Source of the DNA: a virus
Taxonomy: Duplodnaviria > Caudoviricetes
DNA: 53,634 nucleotides
Virus record (IMG/VR): IMGVR_UViG_3300026187_000020
Coordinates: 1-53,634 of that record
Direction: 5' to 3' (one strand)
A program made the position numbers and the translations under genes. The notes under the pieces were generated by a model. That model saw only the letters and a program-made list of their open reading frames with translations. It made no database searches and was not told where the DNA came from. Shown here in pieces: positions 3,256 to 43,818 of the stretch (the first letter of the stretch is position 1; every line of letters begins with the position of its first letter).

Positions 3256-3311
3256 TCTACCGCCATTCTGTTTGTTGTTTTTTCCAAGTACAAATGTTAG
3301 TCTTAGCATCA

Positions 3312-5742: not shown

Positions 5743-5762
5743 TTCTTTAACGTCAGGTATTA
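5743..5762 (-). promoter_or_regulatory. phage RNAP promoter, class L (TAATACCTGACGTTAAA|GAA)
   Basis: One of 4 near-identical copies, all at gene boundaries; T7-like 17-nt geometry, predicted +1 at 5745. Confidence 0.85.
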
Positions 5763-5763
5763 T

Positions 5764-5970
5764 TTACCCAATAATTTCAATCTTATAGTCGTAGTTGTCT
5801 TCATACAACTCGGCATAAGTTTCTTCTCCGTCAATTTCCATGATGACTTCGATATAACCATCGCCAAGCGCTTGAACAAAACCCGCATGAGTTTCATTCT
5901 CAAACATCACAGCAATACGATTACCGATTTTAAGCGAAGGCAAAATCTGAGCCAATGACATTCCGTACAT
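5764..5970 (-). CDS. hypothetical protein
   Basis: AAGGA RBS; overlaps the 3' end of the RNAP gene. Confidence 0.65.
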   Translation of the reverse strand: MYGMSLAQILPSLKIGNRIAVMFENETHAGFVQALGDGYIEVIMEIDGEETYAELYEDNYDYKIEIIG

Positions 5971-8098
5971 CTAGGTTTCCTTTCTCTGGTACTAGATCAA
6001 TTGAGTTTAGTTGCAAGAGAACTTTCTCTAGCGGGTTAGCTTCATAGAGTTCGACAAACTTTTCTCTGACATGGTAGAACATTTTGTTCATATTGCCAGC
6101 ATGAGATCCAAAAGAGTCATGAACGACAGTGACTGGATAGTCAGCATCGTGAATGCACATAGTAAGATGAACAGCATCAAGACTATGAACCACGTTGGGC
6201 GCTGCACCTGTTTTTTGTTTACTCTCATTAATAGTTGTCTCTTCCCATACTTGGATTTGGACTTTAATAATATCATCACCATACTTTAGCTCAGTTCGCT
6301 TATTAGTAGGCTTACGATATGCTTGAAATACAGGAAACCCTGTAATTGGTGAAATCCAGTTCATATGCTCTTTCCGTTCATTTGCTCTTTCAGCAACTGT
6401 TTGGAAGAGTCTCAACATACGAGCTGGCCCCTTAAGCTCCTCATAACAGGTATCATATACCAGAGTGCCAAGGAGTGCTCCCCAGAGATGCTCTTTGTCT
6501 CTTAGATAGGGGGAGATATCCCGAGTGTCTTCTATTACCTGTTGACCCATACCGTAGGACGTACCACCATAGCCTAGTGTCATGACATTACGCTTGACAG
6601 TCTTACGTTGGATTTTCTTGTCTTGGATATTGTGCCAGTATACAGGGAATAGTTTTACTCGGAGATCTCTATTTTGATTGCGCCAAGTTTGTGCTGCTTG
6701 AAAAGCCAAAGCCTTTCTTTCAGACTTATCTGGAGCAGTGTTGTATTCGTTTTGTAGCCTATTAGCTGTTTCGAATACCTCTTGAAACTTATCGATAGTC
6801 TCCTGATCAGTCTCCTTTACCATCTTATCAAGACGATTCCACACCTTCTCAGCAATGAACATATAAACATCACCGGGGAGATCTTGTGGAACAAGGTTTA
6901 CTAGTGGTGCAACCTCATCGTCTTTAGACATAGCAACAAGGTGTTGAACACCGTTGTTAGAACCGTCAATATAAACAGGTAGACAACTTGGGAAGTCTTC
7001 TGTTGCATGTCCATCACCATGCCAATTAGATAGCATAGAGAGTTCATAACAAGCAGAAAGAAAGCTGAAAGGCTTATCTGCCTTCATCCAGCCAGTTTCT
7101 TCCATTGGTCGATCTGCATACATCAACAAATCATCTAAATTGTCTTGTACCCACTGTACACGATCATCAAGACTTACTTTGTCATTACCCCATACGTTTG
7201 CAGTATGAACACATAGCCAGTAGTAGCCCTCTTCTCCAAGAGGTACTGCTTCATCTAGCATTAGAATTCCCTTAGCATTATCGCTAGATTGTTCATGCAA
7301 GAAAGCAGTATTAGGGTAAATACGGCCACGAAAGTCAAGATTATACAGGTGGTAGAATGGTCTACCAATGTGCTTTTCTGCTAGTCTCTGAATAGCTTCA
7401 GCTTCGATAATTAACGAAGCCCGTTTAATTGGGTCAATCTCCTTGGTAAACTTAAAAGGATTCTGTTCTGAAGTCATACATTGTTTATAAACTTCAAATA
7501 CTGGTTCGTTAATTCGCCAAGCGGTATGACTAAGCTTGTTAAGAGTATTAACAATATAGCTCATATCATTTTCTTGGAAATACTTTAGTGCAGCCTCATA
7601 ACCTTTCTTAATTACACTAATACCAGTGTCAATATGATAAGCTTCTCCCTGCCAATCTTCAGGTGGTGCGCTGACAGGAAACATATCAACTTTCTCTGTA
7701 TCAACTAGATCCATTAGTTCTTTAATGGCTTTCCAGTCTTTAGCATAAAGAAAGTAAGATCTGTGCTTATCCTTTTTACCATTACGATAAGTATGTTTCT
7801 TTCTATATCCCAGTATCCCAAGTTCAATATAGCTGATTAGCACAAACCAACCACCTTGAACATCTAGAATACTGTTTTGTTTTTGACGTAGCTTCTGTCT
7901 TAGTCGTCGACCAATACTACTTGCTACATCTACTAGTGTTCCGTTTCTTTCTAACCCCTTGAGTACGTGAATGTAAGAGAATTCTATGATATCTCTAGCA
8001 GACATATTTGTTAAAAAGTTAGCTGCTTGTCGTTTATCAAGAATTGATTTACGATATTCTAGATCTTCAGTTAATCTGTCTAGAATAGTTAATTCCAT
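5930..8098 (-). CDS. T7-like single-subunit DNA-directed RNA polymerase (RNAP-2, ~722 aa)
   Basis: LDFRGRIY, motif A IDGSNNGVQH, motif B RKTVKRNVMTLGYG, APNVVHSLDA, motif C VHDSF; GGAGGA RBS favours start MELT at 8098. Confidence 0.97.
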   Translation of the reverse strand: MELTILDRLTEDLEYRKSILDKRQAANFLTNMSARDIIEFSYIHVLKGLERNGTLVDVASSIGRRLRQKLRQKQNSILDVQGGWFVLISYIELGILGYRKKHTYRNGKKDKHRSYFLYAKDWKAIKELMDLVDTEKVDMFPVSAPPEDWQGEAYHIDTGISVIKKGYEAALKYFQENDMSYIVNTLNKLSHTAWRINEPVFEVYKQCMTSEQNPFKFTKEIDPIKRASLIIEAEAIQRLAEKHIGRPFYHLYNLDFRGRIYPNTAFLHEQSSDNAKGILMLDEAVPLGEEGYYWLCVHTANVWGNDKVSLDDRVQWVQDNLDDLLMYADRPMEETGWMKADKPFSFLSACYELSMLSNWHGDGHATEDFPSCLPVYIDGSNNGVQHLVAMSKDDEVAPLVNLVPQDLPGDVYMFIAEKVWNRLDKMVKETDQETIDKFQEVFETANRLQNEYNTAPDKSERKALAFQAAQTWRNQNRDLRVKLFPVYWHNIQDKKIQRKTVKRNVMTLGYGGTSYGMGQQVIEDTRDISPYLRDKEHLWGALLGTLVYDTCYEELKGPARMLRLFQTVAERANERKEHMNWISPITGFPVFQAYRKPTNKRTELKYGDDIIKVQIQVWEETTINESKQKTGAAPNVVHSLDAVHLTMCIHDADYPVTVVHDSFGSHAGNMNKMFYHVREKFVELYEANPLEKVLLQLNSIDLVPEKGNLDVRNVIGSDFAFA

Positions 8099-8167
8099 AT
8101 ATGTTATCCTCCGAACAGGCATTGTATAATTATTATACCCTGTTATTTAGAATCATGAACAATATTA

Positions 8168-8302: not shown

Positions 8303-8533
8303 TTACGAAAGATTCGGGTTGTTCTTCAACAGAGTCTTGAGCCAGTTACGAACACTGGCATCAGTAACTCCATACTTGCTTGCTACATCAGCAAACGAGT
8401 AACCTTCAAGTACTTCACTCGCAGCGATTACTCGCATACGATTGGTGATCCCTGCATAACGATGACCTTGACCTACATAGTAGCTTGGGGCTTTTTTGGT
8501 GTTACGGATCTTTGTACTTACAGACTTAGCCAT
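8303..8533 (-). CDS. small helix-turn-helix DNA-binding protein
   Basis: YSFADVASKYGVTDASVRNWLK HTH pattern; strong GAAGGAGATAT RBS. Confidence 0.8.
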   Translation of the reverse strand: MAKSVSTKIRNTKKAPSYYVGQGHRYAGITNRMRVIAASEVLEGYSFADVASKYGVTDASVRNWLKTLLKNNPNLS

Positions 8534-8619
8534 GAGATATCTCCTTCATTTGGCATTGTAGACCTCTGTGGTCTAAAAGACCCACTATTGCTAATGGGCT
8601 AGTTAAACTACAGGGAGGT

Positions 8620-8658
8620 TGATACATACTGTATCATTATAGATACGCTAGTTTTCTC
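8620..8658 (-). promoter_or_regulatory. early promoter/hairpin element, class E copy 4
   Basis: GAGA-N8-GTATCTATAA-TGATACA-GTA-TGTATCA. Confidence 0.8.
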
Positions 8659-8800
8659 GGTTTTCAAACCAGTCTTCTAGATCATCATCTTTAGTAGGAA
8701 CATACTCTTGATAAGTATGCCCCCATTTCTCATCAATCTCTTTTACAAGATTGCTGAAAGAGATCTTGTCTAGATGCTCTTTCTTTTCTTCAGGTGTCAT
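8648..8800 (-). CDS. hypothetical protein (50 aa)
   Basis: Hand-translated MTPEEKKEHLDK...FENREN*. Confidence 0.6.
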   Translation of the reverse strand: MTPEEKKEHLDKISFSNLVKEIDEKWGHTYQEYVPTKDDDLEDWFENREN

Positions 8801-9286: not shown

Positions 9287-9673
9287 TTACTTGTAGAACA
9301 TGTGATTGCCAACTTTACCAACGTATTCTAGGTCAGAGACCCAGAAAGGACGGACATAATCGGCGTGATAGTGCGTAGCACCAGTACCAAACAACATGTT
9401 TGGATTCTCAAGGACTTCTTCAGCTAGTTTCTGAATATGTCCCCATTCTACTCGGTCAAGATGACTCATCCGAGTAGGATCGTCGTGTTTCCCATCATGA
9501 GTCCATGAAAATTGTTTAGTTTGCCAAACAACTCCACAAACTGTATCAGGATAGTGAGGTGAATCAACACGATTCAAAGTAACCTCTGCAACCATCATCT
9601 GGCCGTCAATAGGTTCATTACGAGCCTCAAAAAACACATTGAGGGCTAGGCACATAGCTGCTTCCATGATCAT
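9287..9673 (-). CDS. SleB/CwlJ-like cell wall hydrolase (Hydrolase_2)
   Basis: CLALNVFFEARNEP...VTLNRV...YPDTVCGVVWQ..QFSW...GATHYHA..V.P.W...GNHMFY. Confidence 0.92.
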   Translation of the reverse strand: MIMEAAMCLALNVFFEARNEPIDGQMMVAEVTLNRVDSPHYPDTVCGVVWQTKQFSWTHDGKHDDPTRMSHLDRVEWGHIQKLAEEVLENPNMLFGTGATHYHADYVRPFWVSDLEYVGKVGNHMFYK

Positions 9674-10440: not shown

Positions 10441-10478
10441 TGATACTATTGTATCATTATAGATGCCTAAAAAATCTC
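10441..10478 (-). promoter_or_regulatory. early promoter/hairpin element, class E copy 3
   Basis: GAGA-N8-GCATCTATAA-TGATAC-AATA-GTATCA. Confidence 0.8.
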
Positions 10479-10668
10479 ACTTTTTAGACATCATTTTGGC
10501 ATTATTTTCTGCTTCATACTCACGATATTTTCTAGAAGCCAAAATAGCAACTACGATATCACCCGCATAAAATAATAGTACTAATGCCCATACTATTAAC
10601 CACGGCCAATAAAAATTCCAAGTCATTTGACCGTACAGCTCTGCGAGTGTAAAAGTTTCTTGTTCCAT
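10477..10668 (-). CDS. small single-pass membrane protein
   Basis: Trp-rich TM segment; GAGGAG RBS; lies between the two direct repeats. Confidence 0.75.
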   Translation of the reverse strand: MEQETFTLAELYGQMTWNFYWPWLIVWALVLLFYAGDIVVAILASRKYREYEAENNAKMMSKK

Positions 10669-10701: not shown

Positions 10702-10739
10702 TGATACTATTGTATCATTATAGATGCTACAATTTTCTC
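10702..10739 (-). promoter_or_regulatory. early promoter/hairpin element, class E copy 2
   Basis: GAGA-N8-GCATCTATAA-TGATAC-AATA-GTATCA. Confidence 0.8.
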
Positions 10740-10987
10740 ACTTTTTGTAGCATTATATCTGCAAATTCAACTTGTGTCATAAAGCAATTATTTGCAATAT
10801 CATACCATTTTGACCATTCATTTGTCCATTTATTATTTCTTAAATCTAATCCTGTTTTATCAAGCAAATTAATAATTGCAAATTGACCATCCCATTCGAC
10901 AATTCCATATTTGTAGCTACTAGGGAGTCGCTTGGCGTTAGCAATTGCCTCAATAAATTTTTCAGGTTCTTTGATCCACATAGTCAT
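10727..10987 (-). CDS. hypothetical early protein
   Basis: AAGGAG RBS directly after class E copy 1. Confidence 0.75.
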   Translation of the reverse strand: MTMWIKEPEKFIEAIANAKRLPSSYKYGIVEWDGQFAIINLLDKTGLDLRNNKWTNEWSKWYDIANNCFMTQVEFADIMLQKVRKL

Positions 10988-11002: not shown

Positions 11003-11040
11003 TGATACTAATGTATCATTATAGATGCCTTAATTTTCTC
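11003..11040 (-). promoter_or_regulatory. early promoter/hairpin element, class E copy 1
   Basis: GAGA-N8-GCATCTATAA-TGATAC-ATTA-GTATCA, immediately downstream of the late-operon terminator. Confidence 0.8.
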
Positions 11041-11073
11041 ACTTTTTTGTACGGGCTTTCTGACGTATTTGAT

Positions 11074-11101
11074 AAAAAAGGCCACCCCAAGCGGGATGAC
11101 C
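11074..11101 (-). terminator. intrinsic terminator closing the structural operon
   Basis: GGTCATCCC-GCTT-GGGGTGGCC-TTTTTT. Confidence 0.85.
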
Positions 11102-11106
11102 AGTTG

Positions 11107-11409
11107 TTATTTACGCTTCCATGAGCGTCTATTTTTATTATTTTGAGAACGATTAGAGTTCTTCAAATTACTCGGCTTATTATTTGCTCGATTTCTATCT
11201 TTGTGATCAACAGGTCCAGTGGTCTTTTTTCCTGTTGACATTTCTTTTATAATGCGGTGAACGTAGTACGCCTTCCCGTCAATACGGACAGTTTTGTAGC
11301 CATCGCCATGATTAGTTCCGGCAGGAGATCCCGCAGAACTTCTTCCACGGGATTCCTTCCAATATAACTGCCCACCTTTTCTTGTGAATAGTTTATTCCA
11401 ATTAGGCAA
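11107..11409 (-). CDS. HNH endonuclease
   Basis: GY..VRIDGK.YYVHRII...VDHKDRNRANN..SNL...SQN. Confidence 0.9.
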   Translation of the reverse strand: MPNWNKLFTRKGGQLYWKESRGRSSAGSPAGTNHGDGYKTVRIDGKAYYVHRIIKEMSTGKKTTGPVDHKDRNRANNKPSNLKNSNRSQNNKNRRSWKRK

Positions 11410-19945: not shown

Positions 19946-21061
19946 TTACGAGTGGAAGATCGGGAGGATGCCCAGATTCAGGCTGTCCATCTTGCGGCCC
20001 CACGAAGCAGCAGCTGCGTAGTTTGCGTTGGTGGCGAATGCAGTGGTTGCACCAGCCCAATCATACCCCATCGGATGCATGACATAACCCCAACGATACC
20101 AAACGTTAGTCGAACCACCACCAGTGTACGAAGCAGCGTTACGGTCAACTTCAACAGGAGTCGGCAGACCAATGTTAGCAGCAGCAACCGAACCCGGCTT
20201 GATAACGAAGGTACACTTGTCCGACTGACCGTTCAGATCACCTGCAGCAGCAGAGATCATCTGGTTTGCACGAGTCAGGATTAGGCGGAACTTACCCGCA
20301 AAGATGGTGTTGAAAGTCAGGTTGCCATCGGTGACAGGGGTGTCGTCAACCAAGTTAGCAGCACGCATTTCAGCCATTTGCTCAGGCGAAGTAACCAGAT
20401 ACATGAAGTCAGGCTCATGGTCTTTGAAAGCAGCGCCGATCGAACGGAACAGACGCTCACCACGAGCAGCACCAATAGCAGTCGAGTCAAACAGCTTACG
20501 CTCGTCCGAAGCACCAGTTGCAGCCGCACCATGCAGGCCAGCAGCGTTAACGTCAACAAAGAAGCCAGTTGCAGAAGCATCGGCGTCGGTGTCAAAATCA
20601 ATGATACCACCGTTACCAGTACCACCTGCGTCACCCAAAGTAGTTTCGTACAGCGAAACACCCTTCAGAACCGACAGCAGAGCGTCATGCTCGTCTTGAG
20701 CACGAACTTCAGCAAAGTCACGAGCAATCTTGGCCAGACCATCTTGCTTCGACACGACTTCCTGCATGTTCACCTGCTCGGCACCGAAGGTGCGCAGGGT
20801 CTTCACGTAGTCAGCTACATCGGTTGCGATGGTGGTGTACGTACCGTCAGTTGCAGACGACAGCGATGCAACATTGACGTTTGCCGACAGAGGCTTGTAC
20901 CAACGGAACTGACCGATAAACGATTCGCCAGTCGGGTTGATGTTCTGGTCAGCTGCAACGATACCAGTGCTGTTCAGTTTCTTAGCATTGGTGTAAGCTT
21001 CATCCGAATAAGCCGAGATTGCAAGGGCAATATTCTGAAAGTCAGTATTTGTAATAGCCAT
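19946..21061 (-). CDS. major capsid protein
   Basis: 371 aa, follows the scaffold gene, C-terminal YVMHPMGYDW...W motif, strong codon bias. Confidence 0.9.
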   Translation of the reverse strand: MAITNTDFQNIALAISAYSDEAYTNAKKLNSTGIVAADQNINPTGESFIGQFRWYKPLSANVNVASLSSATDGTYTTIATDVADYVKTLRTFGAEQVNMQEVVSKQDGLAKIARDFAEVRAQDEHDALLSVLKGVSLYETTLGDAGGTGNGGIIDFDTDADASATGFFVDVNAAGLHGAAATGASDERKLFDSTAIGAARGERLFRSIGAAFKDHEPDFMYLVTSPEQMAEMRAANLVDDTPVTDGNLTFNTIFAGKFRLILTRANQMISAAAGDLNGQSDKCTFVIKPGSVAAANIGLPTPVEVDRNAASYTGGGSTNVWYRWGYVMHPMGYDWAGATTAFATNANYAAAASWGRKMDSLNLGILPIFHS

Positions 21062-21081
21062 TTCTATTTTCCTTTAATATT

Positions 21082-21759
21082 CTAAATATTATAATTTCCT
21101 AATTGGCCTTTAGCAGCCGCATTTAGAATTTCTTGTGTTGTCATTTGAGAGATTGACTTCTGGCCGTCAGTATTAGCAGTGCCCGCAGGCTTGTCTGCAC
21201 CAGAGCCAGAATTAGTCTTCACTCTAAACAAAAATGAATTATCTTCACTCGTTGAGTAAGCTTTAATAAAATCTTGAATGGTTGTGCCTGACTGGTGAAC
21301 CCATGAACCTTGTTCATCTTGAACTAGTTGCTCAACGATATCACGGTAAGCCATTTGGCGAGAACGATCATTTCTAAAGTCTAAAGCACCAAGAGCAGAA
21401 TTAACTACATTGTCCCGGTTAAGCTTAGTATTTTCTTCTTCAAACACTTTGAGCTTTGCCTGAGCTTCTGCAAGTTTCATCTCAAGGGCTTCTTGAAGTT
21501 TACCTTCTTCTTCAAGTCGCTTAATCTGTTCTTGTTTTTGTTTTTGTTCGATTTCAGCTGCTTTCTTAAGAGCCTCATCACGTTCTTTTACCATACGATC
21601 CATGTTAGACTTCATTTGAGCAAGTCTTTCTTGAACCGCTTTTTCAACCGGATCATCTACTTCTTCTGAAGAAGTTTGTTGTGTTTCTTCTTCTTCTTGA
21701 ACAGATTCTTCGGTTTCAGTTTCATTTACTTCATTTTCGATTTTATTTTCTTCACTCAT
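21082..21759 (-). CDS. capsid scaffolding protein
   Basis: Acidic N-terminus, coiled coil, directly upstream of the major capsid gene. Confidence 0.85.
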   Translation of the reverse strand: MSEENKIENEVNETETEESVQEEEETQQTSSEEVDDPVEKAVQERLAQMKSNMDRMVKERDEALKKAAEIEQKQKQEQIKRLEEEGKLQEALEMKLAEAQAKLKVFEEENTKLNRDNVVNSALGALDFRNDRSRQMAYRDIVEQLVQDEQGSWVHQSGTTIQDFIKAYSTSEDNSFLFRVKTNSGSGADKPAGTANTDGQKSISQMTTQEILNAAAKGQLGNYNI

Positions 21760-21845
21760 AATTATATCCTTTCAAGCACAGCTTGAGTTATTTTTTTATG
21801 TGTCACAGACACGTTAAATAAAGTCGCATAGGCTATTACAAATAA

Positions 21846-24800
21846 CTATGGACCAATGCCATACCAATCCTCCCCAGTTTTAAAGGGAGATAGTATGTCT
21901 TCTCTTGTAATTTTATTATTAGGATCAATAAGACCTAAATCAGTTGCCTCTTTTAGAAGCTCATTATAAGATGATCTAGAGAGACCTTGACGTCTCATCT
22001 CTCTTAGAGTCTTCCTTATAGTGTCACCACCAAGAGCATCTGCATAGATGGTTCTTAGTGCGTCTTTAGATCGCCTTGCATCACCAATATTAGTGAAAAA
22101 AGCGTCATGGATTGTGGCAGTAGGTACGTTATTTTTCCGCCCCCACAAATGAAATCTACGGACTAATACAGCATCATTGCTGTGATTTCCGTTAACTCCA
22201 AGACCAATTCTTGCATCATTTAGAGAGCCTTTCCCAAGTAGCTTTCCGTCTTCTGCTGCATCTTCGTAAATGTTAGCAATTCTACGCCCACTTGCAGGGT
22301 CTCTAAATTCTATTCTTTCTTGAATCTTAGGCCGATACCTCTGAGTCATAATTTTTCCGTCAAAAGTAACCCAAGGAATATCTACTTTTTGAGTTTCATT
22401 GACATAAGTTACTGCCGCCTTTTTCCAGAAATTAATAAAATTATCTGTAACAGGCGCTCTAGCTGACATGTTTTTACTCATAATCCTAGAGATTTCTGAA
22501 AAATCTTTAGGACCAATAATACCTTTACGAGAACTGCTCATTTTAAATACAAAATCAGCAACATCAGGGTGAATGTCTTGGGCGTCTTTAAGCAAGGTTC
22601 TTCCAGCAGGTTGACTCTTGTTTACAAGTTCAACAAGTTCTTTTCTAAATGAAACTAACTCTGCTTCAGTTGCTGTAGCTCCAAGACGATTAGCCACTTT
22701 AATTTTACCATCAATTATTCTAAGCTGAGAATTTAATTCTTCTTTAGTAATTGTGATAAAACCCTTTTCTTCAAGAACTTTAGCAAACTTATTAGCCACA
22801 TTAGCAGTTTTAGTTGCAGCTCCCGCCCCATAAAATGAAACCATGTTTTGAGCCTTAGCGGCTTTAGCCAAATCCTCCCAAGTTAACCCAGCGTCTCTTA
22901 ATGCAGGGTTTTTTAAGAACTCTGGATCATTCACTGTATCCATTGCAACAAGGTCATACAGTCTGTTCTTTTGTTTAGTAGCAAGAACATTAGACGCTTG
23001 TGCGATAGACCTATCACCAGTAGACAATGCGATGATTTGTGCCCCAGAAGAACTAGCATCATTTTCAATCATTAATCTAGTTCTATAGCTCTCAATAGGC
23101 CGTCCTGATTTTAAATGATCATCAATACGTTTATATTCTAAAGCCATTCTAGTCATTTTTGGAACTTCAGCACCCTCAAGGTTCTTAATTAGAGGGTGTT
23201 CAAGGAATTCTCTAATTCTTCTGTCTCTTTGAGTAGTAGATTGAAGAATTTCCCCAAGTTTAATTAGGTCTTTCTCATGTCTTCTAAAGATTTCTCTTCG
23301 TCCGTACTGAGTTAGAGCTTCTGTTCCTGGGCCAATCATTGCGCCAATCTGAATCTTAAGTTCATCTAAGGCTTCTTCTGACATATAAACTGCTCGACCC
23401 GAATTTAAGAAAGGTCTAACAACTTCACCACCTGTTGGGGTGAGATAACCTCTGTGATAGACACGACCTCTAGAGTCAATAAAAGCATTTGTTCTAAAAG
23501 ACTTTCCTCTTTGAACATGATACTTAACCGTTGACATAAGGCCATAGCCCTGTTCACCTCGGTTTAAAATTTCATGCCTAAATTCATTAATGCTATCATA
23601 GTATTTAGTGTTACCTCTTGGGTCTCTAAACCTAACAACATCATCCATAAAAGTAGCAAATTCAGCATCTACCTGATATTCAACATCCATGACATGATTT
23701 AGCATTTCTGCCATTTCTCTATCAATCTGTTTTTCGTCATAATCAGCGAATTTGTCTCTAGAAATAATAGGTATTCCTGTATCATTACCTCTAGCATCTA
23801 TGTATGTCTTTTTACCAGCTTTTACATATAGACGATCTCTTTCGTTAGTATTACCTAAGCGTCTTGCAATAGTAACTCGGCGTTCAGCTTCTTGTAGCTT
23901 TATTAAGTTTTTATCAACTACAATTACTTCCCGAGAGATAGTATCAGCCCAGCCACCGGAAGCTCTTCCGGTTTCTAGATCAATAACCCCTCGTCGGGTT
24001 TTACCTCTAAACTGTACTTTAATGTAACCATTGTCCACCATGTATTGAAGGATAATAGAACCTTCTTTATGGTAGTCTGCTAAGTTATGTTTTGTAAAAG
24101 GTACTAAATTCTCAAAATCTTTAGAAAACTGCTTACCAATATTAATGGCAAGGGTATCATAATCTGTAGACTGGCCTGATGCAATTAGTTTAGCAATTTT
24201 AGTTATATTATCTAGAGCCTTTTCATCCACTAAAGATGACTTAGGTCTTTTAGAAATAACTGCAAACTCATAGTCTAGAATACTCCGAATAACTTCTCTT
24301 TTTTTAGAATATATTCTTGTAATCCAGCTATCCGTCGGCTCTCTATCAAAGGTAGATTTATAAAGTTTATACGCCTTATCAAAACCAGTGTCTTTTAACA
24401 GCCGCTTAATAAGTTTTTCTCTTGTAGGATACTTATCAATTAACTTTCTAAAATAAACTCTCAAAGGCGCTCTGCCTGTAAAGTATAATTTTTGAGCTAA
24501 TTTTTTACCTTCTGTTCGACGCCAAGCATCAATAAATCTTTGATCTTTGAGCAAATTATCTTGAAGCTCTTGGAAGTTATAATACTTACCCAAAATCTGA
24601 ACTTGAGGAGTATCTTTGGATAAGTAACTAACAAACATCTCAGATCTTTTTCTTGATCTTACGTCAAGAAGTCGTGATACGTTTTGAACAGCAAATCTAT
24701 TTTCTGCTCTAACAACAGAAGAAAAGTCCTCCCATAGCCGCTTGTCATTATAGAATCTTTCGAATACTACTCTGAGATTTTCAACTATTACTGTTTGTTG

Positions 24801-26600
24801 GTTGACTGAAACCTTATCATCTAAACTGGCTACTAAACTCTCAATAAACTCTTTGTCATCAGGACGAAGTGTTTTTGAATTTCTCATAAAATCTAGTCGT
24901 TCCTGATACAGGTTAAAATCAGGATCATATAGATTATTATTTTTAATTTCGCCAGTTAATGGATCTGCGCTGAAATTTCTTTCATCAAACTCATTACCAA
25001 CTCTACGTCTAGACGCTGTTTTCCCAACTAAGGAAGTGCCTTTATAATCAGTCAAAGATAGCGTTTTAGTGTAATCATCAGAGTCTAAAAGGAACATATT
25101 CCTTAACGCTTCTTTGTTCTTTGGGCTTCTTGTCAGATCAGAGGGTCTGCTTACAGATAATCTAACTTCTTCATCTCTTATTCTTTGTCTAGGTTTAAAG
25201 ATAGAAGTAATTTCGGCAGCTCTTCGTCTTAGAGTTTGTATTCCAATTGCAGTACCTGTTGGTGTAACAAATTCTCTAGCGTCAATTGCACCGCCTCTAA
25301 AAAGCTTTGCTCTCTCTTCATTTCCAAGAAGCTTTACTTGTACAGCAAATGATTGGCGCTTTAGCCATTCATTAAAACTTTGTATAATTGAAGGAACCCC
25401 GTTAAACATCTTAGTATCGACTAATGCAAGCTTATCCTTCTTAATTCTAGTTCTTGCAGGAAAAAACTTACCTGTAAAGTCTGTTTTACCAATAGACTTA
25501 TCCTTAAAGATAATAGAGTCAGGATCAAAGGCATGATCATTTCCCATAAGAAAAGCATTTCTTACAGTTTTATCTGCCGACTGAATCTGTCTATACATAA
25601 ACGCTTCCCGGTCTCTTTGAAACTGTTCAGTAGCGCCTCCGTATTTCTTAATAAGAGCTTGCTTTTCAGCATAGCTTAAATCACCCTTTTTAAGAATAAA
25701 TCCATTTTTCTTTGCCCAAGCAATTGTTTCTGCGTCTTCGTAAAATTCATGATAAACATATTTAGGCTTATAGGCTTCTATTCTTTTCTCTACAGCTAGA
25801 ACATTTGATTTTGTATGCTTTTCCCCAAATACAGCAATATTATTTGTAGCTACTTGCTCCATCTCTTCTTTGCTTTTGAGAACAGGAACAATACTGCTTC
25901 GACAATTCCAATGTAATGGAGGAATAAAGCGCCTATCATCAATATCATAAACTTTACCATTATGATATGAACAAATGGGACTTGTTCTAGCATCTAGAAT
26001 GGCTGTAAACATAAAACCTTTTACAATATCTCTATTGTCTTCAGCAACTTTTTTCAATGCTGCTGTCTGAGTAGAGGTGATAGCGGTTCTAGTCAAAGCT
26101 CTCGCCTGATACTCTGTAATCTTAGTAGTTTTTAAGACGTCTGCAATTATTTCTTTTTGACTCTTCCCTCTTGCAAGCCCGAGCCGAACTTTACTTTGTA
26201 TTCTAACAAGTTCTCCTGCGGAAACATTTCTGATATTAGTAGTAAGATCAGAAGGGCCTTTAATGTTTGGCCCTGTAATTTGCGCCAGAAGTTCTCTTGT
26301 TTTAGGTTTTTTTACTTCAAAAAAACGTGAAACTTCTCTGTGCAAGTTATCACTATGAAAGTCTAGTTGAGAAGTAGAAAATTCTAAAAGAGTATTTCTT
26401 TTATGAGATAGAAGTTCTGTTCCAAAGCGGCTAACTTCTGGGGTTAAATCCGCTCGGATATCTCTCTGCAGTAGGGATTTGATATTTGCTCTATGTCGCC
26501 GAATAATTCGTCTATTTTGAACTTGGACGCTTTCTTCATAGAGCCTAACATCAGTCATATGATCAACAATACGATCAAAAAGTTTATCATTTACAGTCAT
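21846..26600 (-). CDS. MuF/SPP1-gp7 head protein fused to a single-subunit RNA polymerase (putative virion RNAP, RNAP-1)
   Basis: N-terminal MuF (LTRTA, AILDARTSPIC, PPLHWNCRS). C-terminal RNAP motifs: IDSRGRVY, ENDASSSGAQ, KAQNMVSFYG, NGNHSNDA, TIHDAF. One uninterrupted ORF between portal and scaffold. Confidence 0.93.
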   Translation of the reverse strand: MTVNDKLFDRIVDHMTDVRLYEESVQVQNRRIIRRHRANIKSLLQRDIRADLTPEVSRFGTELLSHKRNTLLEFSTSQLDFHSDNLHREVSRFFEVKKPKTRELLAQITGPNIKGPSDLTTNIRNVSAGELVRIQSKVRLGLARGKSQKEIIADVLKTTKITEYQARALTRTAITSTQTAALKKVAEDNRDIVKGFMFTAILDARTSPICSYHNGKVYDIDDRRFIPPLHWNCRSSIVPVLKSKEEMEQVATNNIAVFGEKHTKSNVLAVEKRIEAYKPKYVYHEFYEDAETIAWAKKNGFILKKGDLSYAEKQALIKKYGGATEQFQRDREAFMYRQIQSADKTVRNAFLMGNDHAFDPDSIIFKDKSIGKTDFTGKFFPARTRIKKDKLALVDTKMFNGVPSIIQSFNEWLKRQSFAVQVKLLGNEERAKLFRGGAIDAREFVTPTGTAIGIQTLRRRAAEITSIFKPRQRIRDEEVRLSVSRPSDLTRSPKNKEALRNMFLLDSDDYTKTLSLTDYKGTSLVGKTASRRRVGNEFDERNFSADPLTGEIKNNNLYDPDFNLYQERLDFMRNSKTLRPDDKEFIESLVASLDDKVSVNQQTVIVENLRVVFERFYNDKRLWEDFSSVVRAENRFAVQNVSRLLDVRSRKRSEMFVSYLSKDTPQVQILGKYYNFQELQDNLLKDQRFIDAWRRTEGKKLAQKLYFTGRAPLRVYFRKLIDKYPTREKLIKRLLKDTGFDKAYKLYKSTFDREPTDSWITRIYSKKREVIRSILDYEFAVISKRPKSSLVDEKALDNITKIAKLIASGQSTDYDTLAINIGKQFSKDFENLVPFTKHNLADYHKEGSIILQYMVDNGYIKVQFRGKTRRGVIDLETGRASGGWADTISREVIVVDKNLIKLQEAERRVTIARRLGNTNERDRLYVKAGKKTYIDARGNDTGIPIISRDKFADYDEKQIDREMAEMLNHVMDVEYQVDAEFATFMDDVVRFRDPRGNTKYYDSINEFRHEILNRGEQGYGLMSTVKYHVQRGKSFRTNAFIDSRGRVYHRGYLTPTGGEVVRPFLNSGRAVYMSEEALDELKIQIGAMIGPGTEALTQYGRREIFRRHEKDLIKLGEILQSTTQRDRRIREFLEHPLIKNLEGAEVPKMTRMALEYKRIDDHLKSGRPIESYRTRLMIENDASSSGAQIIALSTGDRSIAQASNVLATKQKNRLYDLVAMDTVNDPEFLKNPALRDAGLTWEDLAKAAKAQNMVSFYGAGAATKTANVANKFAKVLEEKGFITITKEELNSQLRIIDGKIKVANRLGATATEAELVSFRKELVELVNKSQPAGRTLLKDAQDIHPDVADFVFKMSSSRKGIIGPKDFSEISRIMSKNMSARAPVTDNFINFWKKAAVTYVNETQKVDIPWVTFDGKIMTQRYRPKIQERIEFRDPASGRRIANIYEDAAEDGKLLGKGSLNDARIGLGVNGNHSNDAVLVRRFHLWGRKNNVPTATIHDAFFTNIGDARRSKDALRTIYADALGGDTIRKTLREMRRQGLSRSSYNELLKEATDLGLIDPNNKITREDILSPFKTGEDWYGIGP

Positions 26601-26626
26601 CTAGTACTCTCCTGAGTAGTTAAATG

Positions 26627-28198
26627 TTACTCTAAAATTTGAGGTTCATTTGCAGCCTGTGCTGGGCTTGTGACTAGAGGATCAGTTTGAATTTCTTGAA
26701 CCGCCTCTTCATCACTATAGTCAGCAGGTAAATAGTCATTATATTTTGCGATATTAACAAAGGTATTACGGCTAATAATACCCGTTTGGTACCATTCTGA
26801 AACAAGACGCATAGCACCTTCACCACCAACCATAGGTGCAAAGTCACTAGACATCTGGAATTCTACATCCATGCTGGTATATTCTGTACCATATTTCCAG
26901 TTAAGCATAAAAGCAATAACTTCTCTCATAGTGCCGGAGACTTTAGCGTTAAGCGTACCAAGCTGTGCTGTTTGGGAGGCATTGCGGATTTCCAACGCTA
27001 CGCCAGAAGCGGCCTGCTCAGGCGATAACATACGGATACCCATCTTAGCCATCTCTTCAACAGTAGCTTCAATAGCTCTATCCATATCTGAAAGTGCTGC
27101 AGTAGGTGTTTCCAGTACGCTAATACTCTCATCCTTACGTACACGAAGCCAAGTGCCAAGACCCGCATTTACAATGTTCTCAAACTCTTCATCAGTCATG
27201 TCAGACTGTACAACAGGTGTATAAGTAGCTGCGCCATAGAGCAAGTGGTTACGTCTTGATGTCTTGTTATACAAAGAGATTTCTCTATCAACAAGAGGCA
27301 TCAGAACAGGCTCTACAGGGTCATACTGACCATTAAGAGGCCAAGCGGGAATTCTGTTAAGTCTTTCACCAAACATAGTTGGGTAAACTGTATTAACTAA
27401 CGTAAAGTCTTTTGAGAACCCATCTTCGTAATCAGTTCGTGCGTCACCATTAAGAACTTTAACTTGATTATTGCTATTTTCATTTTCGTAGTAATCAATA
27501 ACAAGTTTACCCTGTTCATCAAGATAATGATCAGCAACACAATCTACATAGTTAGCGTGCCAAGGATTACTTTCTTTATAACGCTTCTTATAGAAACGAG
27601 TAATAAAGCGAGACAACATCTTTCTACGAGTAAGAGGATGTACATCTGTTTGAATGTTGATAACACTTTCCGCTTCCATAAGAACAGGATAAGGATTGAT
27701 CATTGCTCTTTCTTCAGGAGTCAGCATGTCATACTGCTCCTCAGTAAGCTCAGGATAATCAACATAAACCCATGCTCTAGAAGTTTGAAGTTCTTCCCAC
27801 AAAGAATTATCAAGGAAGTTAAACAAAGACAAACCATCAAGAGTAAAGTTAGTCTTAATCCAATCATAAGCTTCTTCAGGAAGTTCTTCTGGTAGTTTAA
27901 GATGAGAGTCTTTACGTAGCAAAGCACTAATAAGAACTTTACAATACTGTGCAGTTAATCCTGGGAGTTCTGCTTCTGCTTTATAGAAGTCATATTGCTT
28001 CTGAGTCATAGAAGGAGAGAAAGGAATCAGAATATTAGTATAGTCATACTCAATAAATTCATCATGAGCTTTAACGTTATCTTGTCCTTGAAGAACAGCT
28101 CTAGACTTTTTCCATAAAGGCTTTAGAGACTCATAGCTATCACTGGGATCAGCTACAGAAGTCTTCATACTCTTTGTTGGTTTAGTTAACTGTGCCAT
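26627..28198 (-). CDS. portal protein (DUF4055-like)
   Basis: 523 aa, first gene of the head module, SGVALEIR and ISRNTF motifs. Confidence 0.88.
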   Translation of the reverse strand: MAQLTKPTKSMKTSVADPSDSYESLKPLWKKSRAVLQGQDNVKAHDEFIEYDYTNILIPFSPSMTQKQYDFYKAEAELPGLTAQYCKVLISALLRKDSHLKLPEELPEEAYDWIKTNFTLDGLSLFNFLDNSLWEELQTSRAWVYVDYPELTEEQYDMLTPEERAMINPYPVLMEAESVINIQTDVHPLTRRKMLSRFITRFYKKRYKESNPWHANYVDCVADHYLDEQGKLVIDYYENENSNNQVKVLNGDARTDYEDGFSKDFTLVNTVYPTMFGERLNRIPAWPLNGQYDPVEPVLMPLVDREISLYNKTSRRNHLLYGAATYTPVVQSDMTDEEFENIVNAGLGTWLRVRKDESISVLETPTAALSDMDRAIEATVEEMAKMGIRMLSPEQAASGVALEIRNASQTAQLGTLNAKVSGTMREVIAFMLNWKYGTEYTSMDVEFQMSSDFAPMVGGEGAMRLVSEWYQTGIISRNTFVNIAKYNDYLPADYSDEEAVQEIQTDPLVTSPAQAANEPQILE

Positions 28199-28280: not shown

Positions 28281-28300
28281 TTCTTAAACGTCAGGTATTA
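28281..28300 (-). promoter_or_regulatory. phage RNAP promoter, class L (TAATACCTGACGTTTAA|GAA)
   Basis: Repeat copy upstream of the portal gene; predicted +1 at 28283. Confidence 0.85.
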
Positions 28301-28370
28301 TTAGGGAGGACCGCAGCCCTCCCTTTTAAGAGACTTTCAGAAAGATGCGATGTGCCAGTCTGTCTCTTTA

Positions 28371-28390
28371 TTCTTAAACGTCAGGTATTT
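28371..28390 (-). promoter_or_regulatory. phage RNAP promoter, class L (AAATACCTGACGTTTAA|GAA)
   Basis: Tandem copy 90 bp upstream of the previous one; predicted +1 at 28373. Confidence 0.85.
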
Positions 28391-29226
28391 TATCGTGTCA
28401 TGCGTTTGTAGGTTTTTGGACCCACGATGCCATCAGCTTTTAAGCCGTTATCTGCTTGCCAAGCCCTGACTGCCTTATCGGTCATTTTGCCAAATACTCC
28501 ATCTGGCGTTTGTCTAAGGACTCTTTGAACCTTTTTAACTGCTTCACCAGTAGAACCAATTTTTAACAGGATTGAAACTGCACCGGGCTTGTAAGTACCG
28601 TTGAGAACACTCATACAGCGGGCATAACGCTCTTTACGATCCCTCAAACCAATGTCGCCACCATTAATCTTTTTAGTTAACGCAGCAACATCGCCAGTAT
28701 CGGCAATATTGTTCAGATTTCGCTTGTCCCAGAACCAAAGGGCAGATGCCAAAGCACCTTCTTTAGTTTCAACCCACTTAGCAGCTTCTTCAGCTGTCAT
28801 ATCAAAGTCTTTAGCAAAAGCAGTATAGTTATTTCTGCCAGTAAGCTGTTTTAAGCCCCGTCCTCGGAACCGCCAGCCGTCACCTTCTTCGGTGTTACCA
28901 AGAGCGCCTTTCTTAGAGCGATACTCATCCATGTAAACATAGTTAGCAATTTTCTCCGGATTACGGGCATATTCCGCAGCGTCACGCTTGCCTTCACCAA
29001 AGTAACGACCAAAGACAGAGTTAAGTGCTTTTTCACTATAATTAAGGTTTTCTTCCAAAGCTTTGAAATCATTACTCTCATGACCAGCTTGCGAAATAAA
29101 ACCAGCAATCCGCTCAGGAGTATCAATGTCATACTTTTTAAATGCCTTATTCAGTTCTTTAGCCCAAGCTTCCGTTTCTTGATTACCCGGAATCATAGCT
29201 TTGAGTTGTTCAGCTGTAATTTTCAT
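28390..29226 (-). CDS. endolysin, GH19 catalytic domain with C-terminal peptidoglycan-binding domain
   Basis: FISQAGHES, EENLNYS, GDGWRFRGRGLKQLTGRNNY, TKKINGG; C-terminal DGVFG..T..AV..WQ...GL.ADGIVG..T. Confidence 0.95.
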   Translation of the reverse strand: MKITAEQLKAMIPGNQETEAWAKELNKAFKKYDIDTPERIAGFISQAGHESNDFKALEENLNYSEKALNSVFGRYFGEGKRDAAEYARNPEKIANYVYMDEYRSKKGALGNTEEGDGWRFRGRGLKQLTGRNNYTAFAKDFDMTAEEAAKWVETKEGALASALWFWDKRNLNNIADTGDVAALTKKINGGDIGLRDRKERYARCMSVLNGTYKPGAVSILLKIGSTGEAVKKVQRVLRQTPDGVFGKMTDKAVRAWQADNGLKADGIVGPKTYKRMTR

Positions 29227-38824: not shown

Positions 38825-39112
38825 TTAAGGTTTTTCCGGCCAAGTCACGTCATGTGGGAATCCAGCCTGATCGGTAATGTCACGAAGAGCCTGACGGTAG
38901 TCAATCTGGGACTGCGTCATGGTGTTGTCAGACAAAGCCCACCAGTCGGTTTCCGACAATAACTCATTCCGATTTTTCCTAATTTCTGTAGCTGACTCTA
39001 CTTTCTGATAAGAAAAACCTCCACTTGAGAAATTCTCCACCATAAAAGCCTCTTCGGCCACAATAAGATTTATAATTTCACCGTTTTGAAATACTTTGTA
39101 TTTATTAGACAT
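38825..39112 (-). CDS. tail fibre assembly chaperone
   Basis: RNELLSETDWW...YRQALRDITDQAGFPHDVTWPEKP. Confidence 0.9.
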   Translation of the reverse strand: MSNKYKVFQNGEIINLIVAEEAFMVENFSSGGFSYQKVESATEIRKNRNELLSETDWWALSDNTMTQSQIDYRQALRDITDQAGFPHDVTWPEKP

Positions 39113-42166: not shown

Positions 42167-42186
42167 TTCTTTAACGTCAGGTATTA
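42167..42186 (-). promoter_or_regulatory. phage RNAP promoter, class L (TAATACCTGACGTTAAA|GAA)
   Basis: Identical to the 5743-5762 copy; predicted +1 at 42169, followed by a 5' hairpin. Confidence 0.85.
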
Positions 42187-43818
42187 ATACGAGCCACCAT
42201 CAATGATGACATCACCGAGAGTTTCTCCGCCCAATGACCATTGACCTGCTGATTCATCCCAGAGGAATGAAACATTAGCCGAAGTACCTCGTTCAATTTC
42301 GATACCACCATCCTGCGATGGTGCTCCAGTTTCATCTGAGTTAAGAACAATAATGGAGTCGCCAATAGCCACTTCATTAGAGTTTACTGTAGTAGTTGTA
42401 CCATTAACCGTTAAGTTGCCAGTAATAATTGTATTACCGCCAACGTTAAGGTTTCCTCCAACACCAACACCACCAGTTACCTTTAAAGCACCTGTAGTGG
42501 TTGAAGATGAGGCGGTATTGTTAGTAATGCTAACAGCAGTACTAGTAGTTGCACCCCGACCAGTAACACTCGCAAGAGTGTCGCTTTCCGAAGTTAAATA
42601 AGAACCTGATGGTTGAATGCCTGCTTCTGCTAAGGTATTATTGACCCAAGCTGTGCCATTCCACTTTAAAATCTCTCCAGATGCTACGCTTGTTACTGTA
42701 ACGTTAGAAAGATCTTGAATATTCTCACCAGTAATTCCCGTCAGATAGCTTCCAAGATCACTAATCTGTGATTCTGTAATACTAAGTGCTGCTTGGTGTT
42801 GTGTTACATTGCTCTGTGCAATCCGGCCATCTGCGAAAGTGCCACTAGTAATAGCACTAGCTGCATGAGTATGAGACGCAGCAGCTACTCCAGCTTCAGC
42901 AAGAGTATTGTTAACCCAAGCTGTACCGTTCCACTTTAGGAGTTCTCCAGAACCAATAGTAGTAATTGTAACATCAGCAAGAGCAGAAAGGTTATCTCCG
43001 GATACATCCGTAATATAACTTCCGAGATCACTAATTTGTGATTCAGTGATACTTAAAGCTGCTTCGTGTTGAGTAACATTAGATTGAGCAATTCTTGCAT
43101 CGGCAAAAGTACCGCTAGTGATAGCACTAGCTGCGTGATTGTGTGATGCCGCAGCAATACCTGCCTCTGACAGAGTATTGTTAATCCAAGAAGTGCCGCT
43201 CCACTTAAGAATTTCACCTGAAGCAATATTGGTAATAGTTACATCAGAAAGATCCCCCAAAGGTTCAGAAGTAACATCTCCAATGTAAGCCCCAAAATCA
43301 CTAATCTGTGACTCGGTAATACTTAGAGCAGCCTGATGCTGAGTAACGTTGCTTTCAGCAACTCTTGCATCATTAAAAGTTCCAGAAGTAATATCTGAAG
43401 CGGCGTGAGTATGTGTGGCTGCTGCATAGGAGCCTGCAGGTTGAATTCCTGCTTCTGCTAAAGTATTGTTAACCCAAGCAGAACCATTCCACTTAAGAAT
43501 TTCACCACTACTATTAGAGGTAATCGTTACGTTTTCTAGAGAATCTAGAGTTGAATAGCCCGAAGCATTAAAGGCTGTTCCATTATAGGCTTTTAGAATA
43601 TCATTTGCAGTGTCATACCACAAATCACCTTCTGACGCATTAGAGGGAGCGGTTGCACCTACATAAGCGCCGTCTAGTCTAACAATAGCATTACTATTGT
43701 CTTTTGTATAAATTTTACGGTCAGCAAGGTTTACAGCGAATTCGCCCTGTTCCAAGTCTGCCGCAAGAGGAGCGCCACCTGACGTAGAACTCTTCTTAAT
43801 GAGAATTTTGGTTGCCAT
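42184..43818 (-). CDS. repeat-rich fibre protein
   Basis: About 3.5 tandem ~90-aa repeats (GEILKWNG..W.NNTL.EAG; HxH; SNVTQH.AALSITESQISD); N-terminus paralogous to 39112..42114. Confidence 0.85.
   Translation of the reverse strand: MATKILIKKSSTSGGAPLAADLEQGEFAVNLADRKIYTKDNSNAIVRLDGAYVGATAPSNASEGDLWYDTANDILKAYNGTAFNASGYSTLDSLENVTITSNSSGEILKWNGSAWVNNTLAEAGIQPAGSYAAATHTHAASDITSGTFNDARVAESNVTQHQAALSITESQISDFGAYIGDVTSEPLGDLSDVTITNIASGEILKWSGTSWINNTLSEAGIAAASHNHAASAITSGTFADARIAQSNVTQHEAALSITESQISDLGSYITDVSGDNLSALADVTITTIGSGELLKWNGTAWVNNTLAEAGVAAASHTHAASAITSGTFADGRIAQSNVTQHQAALSITESQISDLGSYLTGITGENIQDLSNVTVTSVASGEILKWNGTAWVNNTLAEAGIQPSGSYLTSESDTLASVTGRGATTSTAVSITNNTASSSTTTGALKVTGGVGVGGNLNVGGNTIITGNLTVNGTTTTVNSNEVAIGDSIIVLNSDETGAPSQDGGIEIERGTSANVSFLWDESAGQWSLGGETLGDVIIDGGSY

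Follow-up and report, generated by a model that had tools for sequence, protein, structure and literature searches.

A head protein fused to a T7-like RNA polymerase

The stretch analyzed here, referred to as the window, is the linear IMG/VR virus record IMGVR_UViG_3300026187_000020 of 53,634 bases, for which CheckV gives a completeness of 78%. Every long open reading frame (ORF) of the window is located on the minus strand. The subject of this work is a gene of its head module (21846..26600, minus strand) that starts with ATG, comprises 1584 codons plus stop with no internal stop, and encodes a MuF head domain fused to a T7-like single-subunit RNA polymerase (RNAP); its product is referred to as MuF-RNAP, and intact homologous ORFs are present in other assemblies. 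The portal gene (26627..28198, minus strand; phrog_145, E 1.1e-49; Pfam DUF4055) is found directly upstream and the head scaffolding gene (21082..21759, minus strand; phrog_206, E 1.6e-9) directly downstream, followed by the major head protein gene (19946-21061; phrog_247, E 1.2e-26). The initial annotation of this DNA, made from the letters alone, had described a single 1584-residue ORF between portal and scaffold, and the uninterrupted reading frame and the PHROG matches of its two neighbors agree with that description.

Two Pfam domains, and no others, were detected in the fusion protein, both above their curated cut-offs: Phage_Mu_F (PF04233; residues 134-237, E 6.8e-14, 53 bits, cut-off 29.6) and RNA_pol (PF00940; residues 1161-1538, E 6.2e-8, 32.3 bits, cut-off 22), the latter scoring 33.9 bits in a whole-genome Pfam search. 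PHROG profiles for head morphogenesis (phrog_241, E 7.4e-43) and RNA polymerase (phrog_414, E 2.2e-26) also matched, and the N4-like RNAP profile phrog_2166 matched with an E value of only 1.3e-5 across 88 residues. All sequence and fold tests that could be applied place the protein in both the MuF family and the T7-like RNAP family. The initial annotation had assigned the first ~240 residues to MuF and had recognized, within the head-gene module, a complete and apparently catalytically intact T7-like RNAP; this identification is backed by sequence, profile, and fold, and the motifs that it quoted had all been located to within 3 nucleotides (nt).

The C-terminal module (residues ~621-1584; 21849..24740, minus strand), delimited with AlphaFold2, Foldseek, and PF00940, is a complete T7-like single-subunit RNAP. 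The AlphaFold2 model of residues 601-1584 had a mean predicted local distance difference test score (pLDDT) of 80.7 and a predicted template modeling score of 0.76. Among the 74 PDB hits that Foldseek returned for this model at E<=1e-3, chains of T7 RNAP ranked at the top (E 7.9e-19, ~1000 aligned columns over 832-862 target residues), with template modeling scores (target) of 0.50-0.58, and yeast and human mitochondrial RNAPs came next. In BFVD, a library of predicted viral structures, the homolog of the DSS3 phages described below was matched with an E value of 3.5e-102, podovirus T7-like RNAPs with ~1e-20, and N4-like virion RNAPs with 1e-12 to 1e-9. Because of this ranking in both libraries, the module is considered complete and structurally nearer to T7-like than to N4-like polymerases. 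The comparison with T7 RNAP and N4 proposed in the initial annotation has thus recovered the T7 RNAP fold, with the N4-like virion RNAPs weaker. As modeled, the ~960-residue module is a complete T7-type enzyme that includes the N-terminal domain as well as thumb, palm, and fingers.

At the sequence level, a phmmer search with the whole fusion protein against PDB sequences matched no chain. A profile of 37 aligned sequences, namely, the window protein and 36 homologs with 48-78% identity, reached T7 RNAP with an E value of 1.4e-5 in three colinear stretches that contain DSRGRVY, the motif A aspartate, and IHDAF. DSRGRVY (residues 1042-1048; 23457..23477, minus strand) falls on T7 DWRGRVY 421-427, with D, R, G, R, and Y invariant, and the DxRGR pattern is found in 37/37 sequences. 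Motif A, NDASSSGAQ (23037..23063, minus strand), places the catalytic D1181 on T7 D537 and on motif A of RNAP2, a second polymerase of the window that is described below; N1180, D1181, A1182, S1183, S1185, G1186, A1187, and Q1188 are invariant in all 37 sequences. A motif search located NHSND (22173-22187, minus strand), and H1473, N1475, and D1476 are likewise invariant. Motif C, IHDAF (22098..22112, minus strand), contains the invariant H1498 and the catalytic D1499 and was aligned with T7 IHDSF (H811-D812) and RNAP2 VHDSF. Both catalytic aspartates, reported as intact in the initial annotation, therefore align with T7 D537 and D812 and are invariant in the 37 sequences.

The probable motif B is KAQNMVSFYG (22827..22856, minus strand), in which K1249, M1253, V1254, Y1257, and G1258, together with the adjacent A1259, are invariant in 37/37 sequences. 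A local alignment limited to the interval between motif A and the WVTxDG block pairs KAAKAQNMVSFYG with RNAP2 KTVKRNVMTLGYG; the motif B residues of T7 RNAP are K631, Y639, and G640. Other alignments do not back this placement. Alignment of the fused-polymerase profile by hhalign with RNAP2 alone and with a 20-sequence RNAP2 profile had a low probability (4.0% and 2.4%, respectively), and both of these low-confidence runs placed RNAP2 motif B on the non-conserved residues 1316-1330; an hmmsearch with the RNAP2 profile recovered motif A alone. The motif B placement is accepted as probable on the basis of conservation and the local match, without backing from profile-profile alignment. Of the earlier claim that the lysine and tyrosine of motif B are intact, the invariance of K1249 and Y1257 and their position in the best local RNAP2 match stand, whereas hhalign puts the motif elsewhere. 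The module is predicted to be catalytically competent, with promoter-dependent RNA synthesis as its putative activity.

The MuF/SPP1-gp7-like head domain comprises residues 1-250 (25851..26600, minus strand; phrog_241), with the Pfam core at 25890-26201, and its residues D203, T206, C210, P228, H230, C233, R234, and S235 are invariant in 46 sequences. It is followed by an alpha/beta insertion (residues ~255-400; 25401..25838, minus strand), recognized from length classes, consensus, and model, that is confined to a subgroup of 1584-1602-residue proteins and is not present in the ~1450-residue homologs (1451-1463 residues). A mostly helical middle region (residues ~401-620; 24741..25400, minus strand), with conserved columns and pLDDT values mostly above 80, then leads to the polymerase and may contribute to early-promoter recognition. 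The model of residues 1-620 had a pLDDT of 85.8, with four long helices and a small beta unit in the MuF part. A fold search with these residues against the PDB gave no match at E<=1e-3, so this library contains no solved structure related to the MuF part or the middle region; the ~370-residue stretch between MuF and polymerase (residues ~250-620) matches no known fold. Complex prediction for the portal protein (523 residues, 25-row alignment) and MuF residues 1-260 gave a score of 0.21 (mark 0.32), which speaks neither for nor against binding.

Distribution and integrity of the fusion

The fusion is found in many assemblies. A cluster search with residues 700-1584 as the query, covering proteins of 871-2772 residues and 8000 scored candidates, identified 484 clusters at E<=1e-3. 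According to precomputed Pfam assignments for the best 120 of these 484 clusters, 97 contain both PF04233 and PF00940, 20 contain PF04233 only, and 3 contain PF00940 only, the last being 935-1180-residue proteins on ~6-kb contigs; at least 117 clusters from other assemblies, counted among these best 120, carry MuF within the fusion homolog. The listed homologs bear no source names other than "SPP1 gp7 family head morphogenesis protein," "minor capsid protein," and "hypothetical protein." The search for other MuF-RNAP fusions advised in the initial annotation has hence yielded these clusters and, in addition, two cultured phages, DSS3_VP1 and DSS3_PM1. An exhaustive search of 50%-identity representatives gave 150 matches at E<=1e-3, 61 of them at E<=1e-30; of the seven most distant long ones, at 24-30% identity, all carry Phage_Mu_F at the N-terminus, and three exceed the RNA_pol cut-off. 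A search of 50,697 phage records gave 827 matches, almost all of them through MuF alone; coverage of at least 80% of the fusion protein was reached by just four, namely, those of DSS3_PM1, of DSS3_VP1 (two records), and of EBPR siphovirus 1. For the distant fusion type represented by P0219, a search for isolates found no relative in viral contigs and none among 1073 matching phage records at >=80% coverage.

DSS3_VP1 and DSS3_PM1, members of the Naomviridae that infect Ruegeria pomeroyi, are the nearest cultured relatives of the window phage. The orthologs, DSS3_VP1 gp108 (YP_010105321.1) and its DSS3_PM1 homolog, show 62% identity over 91% of the protein, and gene order is common to the window and the DSS3 phages. 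At the DNA level, 5% of a 22-kb stretch aligns with DSS3_VP1, at 70%, and the G+C content of the window (~40%) is lower than that of the DSS3 phages. The DSS3 orthologs are labeled just "head morphogenesis," which is the RefSeq name, or "minor head protein-like protein."

In EBPR siphovirus 1 (JF412302.1, 9179-9405), the HNH endonuclease ORF gp48 interrupts the gene and separates gp47, annotated as a head protein, from gp49. A group I intron match was obtained at this break (RF00028, 40.5 bits, E 1.7e-8, under the gathering score of 50), which suggests that splicing yields one continuous product. Eight proteins of 1112-1182 residues from the representative search end at query position ~519-559, and several proteins of 260-345 residues start at ~540-565. 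The fusion homologs suggest recurrent insertions near the motif B region.

The initial annotation had named an assembly chimera or a hidden stop codon as conditions that would overturn its reading, and at the contig level neither is the case. A stop-free homolog is present in four of five long related contigs, three as complete ORFs (1451-1463 residues) and one truncated where its contig stops; no homolog is present in the remaining contig, which is 62% complete. Logan contigs of 22 and 30 kb from two runs, which may be the source of the window, span positions 21000-27500 unbroken and with 0 differences, and an independent estuary run (X4) contains identical shorter pieces that leave 2 of 30 bins uncovered. 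In total, the window was found in three soil metagenome runs, possibly its source, and one estuary metagenome run, with no RNA run among those listed. The uninterrupted architecture in at least 117 clusters and the two cultured phages, the stop-free related contigs, the spanning Logan contigs, and the identical estuary pieces rule out an assembly chimera or hidden stop. The modest RNA_pol Pfam score of 32 bits and the failure of phmmer to match a PDB chain would fit a chimera, a hidden frameshift, or an inactive, polymerase-derived structural cargo. Set against the invariant catalytic motifs and the recovery of the whole T7 RNAP fold, this explanation is regarded as highly improbable. The fusion is real and under selection.

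A second polymerase and two classes of promoter-like motifs

The window encodes a second polymerase, RNAP2, a free-standing canonical T7-like RNAP of 730 residues (5930..8122, minus strand; PF00940, E 7.7e-86; phrog_414, E 5.4e-136; N4-like RNAP phrog_2166, E 2.4e-42). Between the fused polymerase and RNAP2, BLASTP detects nothing beyond a marginal similarity at motif C (E 0.01), and the pair is therefore considered to be old; an origin of the fused polymerase as a recent RNAP2 duplicate was rejected on the same ground. DSS3_VP1 carries the same polymerase pair, with the second gene annotated there as "RNA polymerase." A 76-residue helix-turn-helix protein (8303-8533, minus strand; HTH_Tnp_ISL3, E 4e-8; weak similarity to sigma-70 region 4) is encoded between the last class-1 motif described below and RNAP2 and is a candidate transcription cofactor or regulator.

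Two classes of promoter-like motifs accompany the two polymerases. Class 1 is confined to the interval that separates the late operon from RNAP2, ahead of small early genes and RNAP2 itself. The late operon ends in a terminator-like stem-loop with a T-run (11080..11101, minus strand), and just behind it follow copy A (11003..11047, with the hairpin TGATAC-ATTA-GTATCA), copy B (10702..10746), and copy C (10441..10485), both with a hairpin, all on the minus strand; copy D (8619..8665, minus strand), also with a hairpin and with a more diverged upstream half, precedes the helix-turn-helix gene and RNAP2. The window copies read AAAAAGTGAGAAAAttaaGGCATCTATAATGA, followed by the hairpin TGATAC-loop-GTATCA. 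DSS3_VP1 contains an identical 32-nt class-1 sequence twice, in the same place and behind the same terminator; these copies were missed by a direct-repeat scan of its early region and found by reading the sequence. At its end, just before the late-operon terminator, the tape-measure gene is overlapped by an HNH endonuclease gene (11107-11409, minus strand; phrog_99, E 1.4e-27).

A scan of 56 sequences that allowed up to 5 mismatches detected 70 class-1 sites in 29 of them, 47 distinct and 70/70 on the coding strand, with the consensus nnaAAAAAgTGAGAAAAntaanGCATCTATAATGAta. A hairpin of at least 5 bp starting from TGA was found at 31 of the 47 distinct sites, as compared to 1.0% of shuffles, the loci being related and not independent; there are eight different complementary stems, and their loops measure 3-9 nt. 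If initiation takes place at the G of TGA, as in the T7-like register, the hairpin behind TATAAT may form a stem-loop at the 5' end of the transcript; alternatively, by analogy with N4, it may act as a structural element of the DNA. The exact class-1 pattern had no match in 596 Gb of bacterial and archaeal genomes and occurred in 62 stretches of IMG/VR viral contigs. Wherever such a stretch had at least 1.5 kb of upstream sequence, a same-strand tape-measure homolog lay upstream (46/46), and wherever more than 4.5 kb was available downstream, an RNAP2 homolog was found there (20/20).

Class 2 has a different distribution. One element (5743..5764, minus strand) is located directly after RNAP2 and before the gene for a gp2.5-like single-stranded DNA-binding protein (5162-5695, minus strand; phrog_112, E 8.4e-10), two (28281..28302 and 28371..28392, minus strand) lie upstream of portal and MuF-RNAP, and another (42167..42188, minus strand) is found upstream of the tail-fiber gene 39112-42114. 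The single-stranded DNA-binding protein gene, the first behind the post-RNAP2 element, fits a T7-like middle (replication) module. The window copies read AATAATACCTGACGTT(A/T)AAGAA, and a scan detected 45 class-2 sites in 31 sequences, all on the coding strand. In shape, class 2 resembles promoters of the T7 group: it begins with TAATAC and has an A/T run ahead of a G. The motif varies with the RNAP2 clade, reading ACCTGACG, or ACCTGACC in a clade with 74% RNAP2 identity, and DSS3_VP1 has AGGGTGCG or AGGTGACG at about eleven sites, some of them before the portal gene. Between the window and DSS3_PM1, RNAP2 is 57% identical and the fused polymerase module 65%, a contrast in line with the variability of class 2 and the invariance of class 1, although suggestive only.

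Proposed transcription scheme

The fusion with its fold and conserved catalytic motifs, the presence of a second polymerase, the location of both motif classes, and the conservation across the family lead us to infer packaging and ejection of MuF-RNAP, an assignment of each polymerase to one promoter class, and independence of the host RNAP. MuF-RNAP would be a low-copy internal head protein whose MuF domain targets it to the procapsid, by analogy via the portal. The position of its gene behind class-2 elements in the late module implies that it would be made late, during head assembly. It would then be packaged, exit the capsid together with the DNA, and be the sole phage polymerase in the new cell at time zero. 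There it would read the class-1 promoters, aAAAAAgTGAGAAAAntaanGCATCTATAAT followed by GA, which are present in 2-4 tandem copies directly after the late-operon terminator and would drive the small early genes and the RNAP2 gene. RNAP2 would in turn read the class-2 promoters, AATAATACCTGACGTTAAA followed by GAA, ahead of the replication, head, tail, and lysis genes. We consider it probable that a MuF-targeted, packaged RNAP reads class 1 and RNAP2 then reads class 2, following an N4-like logic, realized with other components in a marine siphovirus of the Naomviridae lineage, with a start independent of the host RNAP. The functional claim gains strength from the second canonical RNAP, the family-specific early motif, and the T7-like middle/late motif. 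An injected MuF-RNAP would be the simplest reader of class 1 because these motifs are needed before phage proteins are available, lack a -35 element, are conserved over ~32 nt, and have no cellular counterpart.

The main rival is a T7-like scheme, in which the host RNAP reads the TATAAT of class 1 and produces RNAP2, and the packaged MuF-RNAP does another job; it could pull in the genome by transcription, make replication primers, or transcribe a small gene subset. Every class-1 copy contains a perfect TATAAT, and in T7, three tandem strong promoters ahead of the RNAP gene are used by the host RNAP for early work, an arrangement that the class-1 region mirrors. In addition, one sigma-70-like site matching at 11/12 positions (ATGACA-17-TATAAT; 10752-10780, minus strand) is found just upstream of copy B alone, inside the preceding small gene. 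A sigma-70 scan, however, called 0 of the 4 class-1 copies of the window, since the -35 match is absent, and there is no TG extended -10; the number of sigma-70-like sites in the class-1 region (27) shows no excess over expectation (21.5 +/- 5.5). Furthermore, ~25 conserved class-1 positions, including the spacer and GCATC, exceed what sigma-70 needs, the motif is identical across phages that barely align and has no match in the cellular genomes searched, and the scheme leaves a conserved, catalytically intact 960-residue polymerase without a defined role. The use of class 1 by the host RNAP therefore appears rather unlikely.

Further points weigh against a packaged polymerase that starts transcription. 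Class 1 is assigned to the fused enzyme by elimination only, and the main text of the DSS3 isolation paper gives no virion proteomics (PMC8323127). The partial record of EBPR siphovirus 1 shows no second RNAP, and the two-polymerase scheme is for this reason restricted to the Naomviridae-like group.

The grouping of the gene with late genes behind class-2 elements would also agree with a MuF-RNAP that is not packaged, or not ejected, and that works late or in step with packaging, anchored by its MuF domain to the procapsid or portal of the producing cell. RNAP2 and class 2, however, already serve the late genes in the window and in DSS3_VP1, the class-1 elements are confined to the early region, and MuF/gp7 proteins are described as residing inside the head and acting when infection begins (PMC6316719). 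Such a role in the producing cell is accordingly judged improbable. Extending the favored scheme of an injected MuF-RNAP, there is about an even chance that the whole transcription of Naomviridae-type marine siphoviruses is free of the host RNAP, that their early promoter is bipartite and unusually long at ~32 nt (an GTGAGAAAA box and an GCATCTATAAT initiation region), and that both enzymes are perhaps adapted to DNA containing deoxyuridine (dU).

Other features of the window

According to the text of the isolation paper, the DSS3 phages contain dU in place of dT (PMC8323127). No homolog of the DSS3_VP1 deoxycytidylate deaminase was detected at the corresponding place of the window, the window being 78% complete and without most of the replication module. 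The region concerned (2866-3315 and 2336-2890, minus strand) contains a nucleotide kinase gene, as in DSS3_VP1, and the ORF at the deaminase position shows no similarity and no Pfam or PHROG match. A portal homolog with 77% identity (P0311) has the NCBI label "Paracoccaceae bacterium," a possible hint as to the host. Two cell-wall hydrolase genes are present, one among the early genes (9287-9673, minus strand; endolysin family phrog_938) and one before the portal gene (28390-29226, minus strand; endolysin with PG_binding_1). Three tandem 270-nt repeats with 65-72% identity (42620-43429) lie in the tail-fiber gene, and a 36-nt periodic repeat (51012-51388) lies in a structural gene near the right end. 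Rfam searches at gathering thresholds gave no match in the window.

Comparison with known systems

The initial annotation knew of no characterized MuF-RNAP, and the literature agrees: no description of such a fusion was found in full texts, which for PMC5512222 and PMC8323127 means the running text. In the main text of the DSS3 isolation paper, neither "RNA polymerase" nor "RNAP" occurs (PMC8323127), and a 2025 study that reports Naomiviridae-like particles to be abundant in seawater and under-sampled mentions, in the part covered, no RNA polymerase (PMC12669031). New here are also RNAP2 and the class-1 and class-2 motifs alongside MuF-RNAP. The DSS3 proteins are direct orthologs of MuF-RNAP, and DSS3_VP1 and DSS3_PM1 share with the window the gene order, the second RNAP, and the class-1 motif; they differ in that they are without the ~130-residue insertion and in that dU-DNA has been shown for the DSS3 phages only, as stated in the text of the same paper (PMC8323127). 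The proposed scheme would provide a concrete function for a protein that is annotated in the Naomviridae only as a head protein, and it is testable now, as both DSS3 phages can be cultured on the model bacterium Ruegeria pomeroyi DSS-3.

With SPP1 gp7 and Mu gpF, the fusion protein shares the N-terminal domain PF04233 and a gene position adjoining the portal gene. As far as the sources were covered, a few copies of SPP1 gp7 are brought into the procapsid by the portal and are needed for an efficient start of infection (PMC6316719), and cargo delivery has been proposed for gp7-like/MuF proteins with C-terminal cargo (PMC6316719, PMC5512222). A 2017 survey of packaged effectors describes in its running text many MuF fusions and none to an RNAP (PMC5512222). 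The cargo of MuF-fused polymorphic toxins consists of toxins or host-modifying enzymes such as RelA/SpoT, nucleases, and ADP-ribosyltransferases, whereas here it is a phage transcription enzyme; an immunity gene follows in the former, and the scaffold gene follows MuF-RNAP. A MuF polymorphic toxin was excluded on these two grounds, the polymerase nature of the C-terminal part and the identity of the next gene. If the proposed scheme is true, the MuF capsid-targeting module, formerly tied to toxins and host-modifying cargo, carries a transcription enzyme.

The fused polymerase resembles T7 RNAP (gene 1) in the fold match over its whole length, in the alignment of the DxRGR, A, and C motifs, and in the location of all genes on one strand. 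It differs from T7 RNAP, which is free-standing, made early, and not packaged, and the two enzymes are ~13% identical in the structural alignment. Packaged virion RNAPs that allow host-independent early transcription are also found in the crAss-like phage phi14:2 (gp66) and in the jumbo phages phiKZ and AR9. These are two-barrel, multisubunit-type enzymes with a fold unrelated to that of T7-like enzymes, and AR9 and PBS-type phages have uracil DNA. A packaged MuF-RNAP would offer a reason for the host-transcription independence of phages whose cultured members carry dU-DNA and, if true, would represent, in a lineage reported to be abundant in seawater, the AR9/PBS2 strategy carried out by a single-subunit enzyme. 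The Naomviridae-like family may also yield two mutually orthogonal single-subunit polymerase/promoter pairs per genome.

Multisubunit types aside, knowledge of packaged phage RNAPs rests mainly on the paradigm of the 3500-residue N4 enzyme. Clear parallels exist between the two systems. N4 gp50, with N4 RNAPII beside it, likewise has a T7-family polymerase domain within a larger, late-encoded virion protein, virion status being deduced in the present case; a second canonical phage RNAP serves the next stage; and there are few special early promoters with hairpins, the position of which differs in the window phage. The differences concern size, carrier, peptidase, and fold. N4 is a podovirus, and the window phage has the long tape-measure protein of a siphovirus; gp50 comprises ~3500 residues with a central polymerase, as compared to 1584 residues with a C-terminal polymerase and a ~250-residue MuF carrier here. 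According to the running text of the 2017 survey, gp50 is without MuF; it brings an injection region of its own at the N-terminus, and its C-terminal region, used for encapsidation, includes a zincin-like peptidase domain (PMC5512222). The survey also states that N4-like phages alone possess N4-like virion RNAPs, nearly always with a metallopeptidase fused to them (PMC5512222). The fold of the fused polymerase, in turn, is nearer to the T7-like enzymes than to the N4-like virion RNAPs. In the proposed scheme, MuF-RNAP works like the N4 virion RNAP yet is outside the N4-like virion RNAP family and, if the scheme is true, represents a second, independent, and much smaller solution to the packaging of a single-subunit RNAP.

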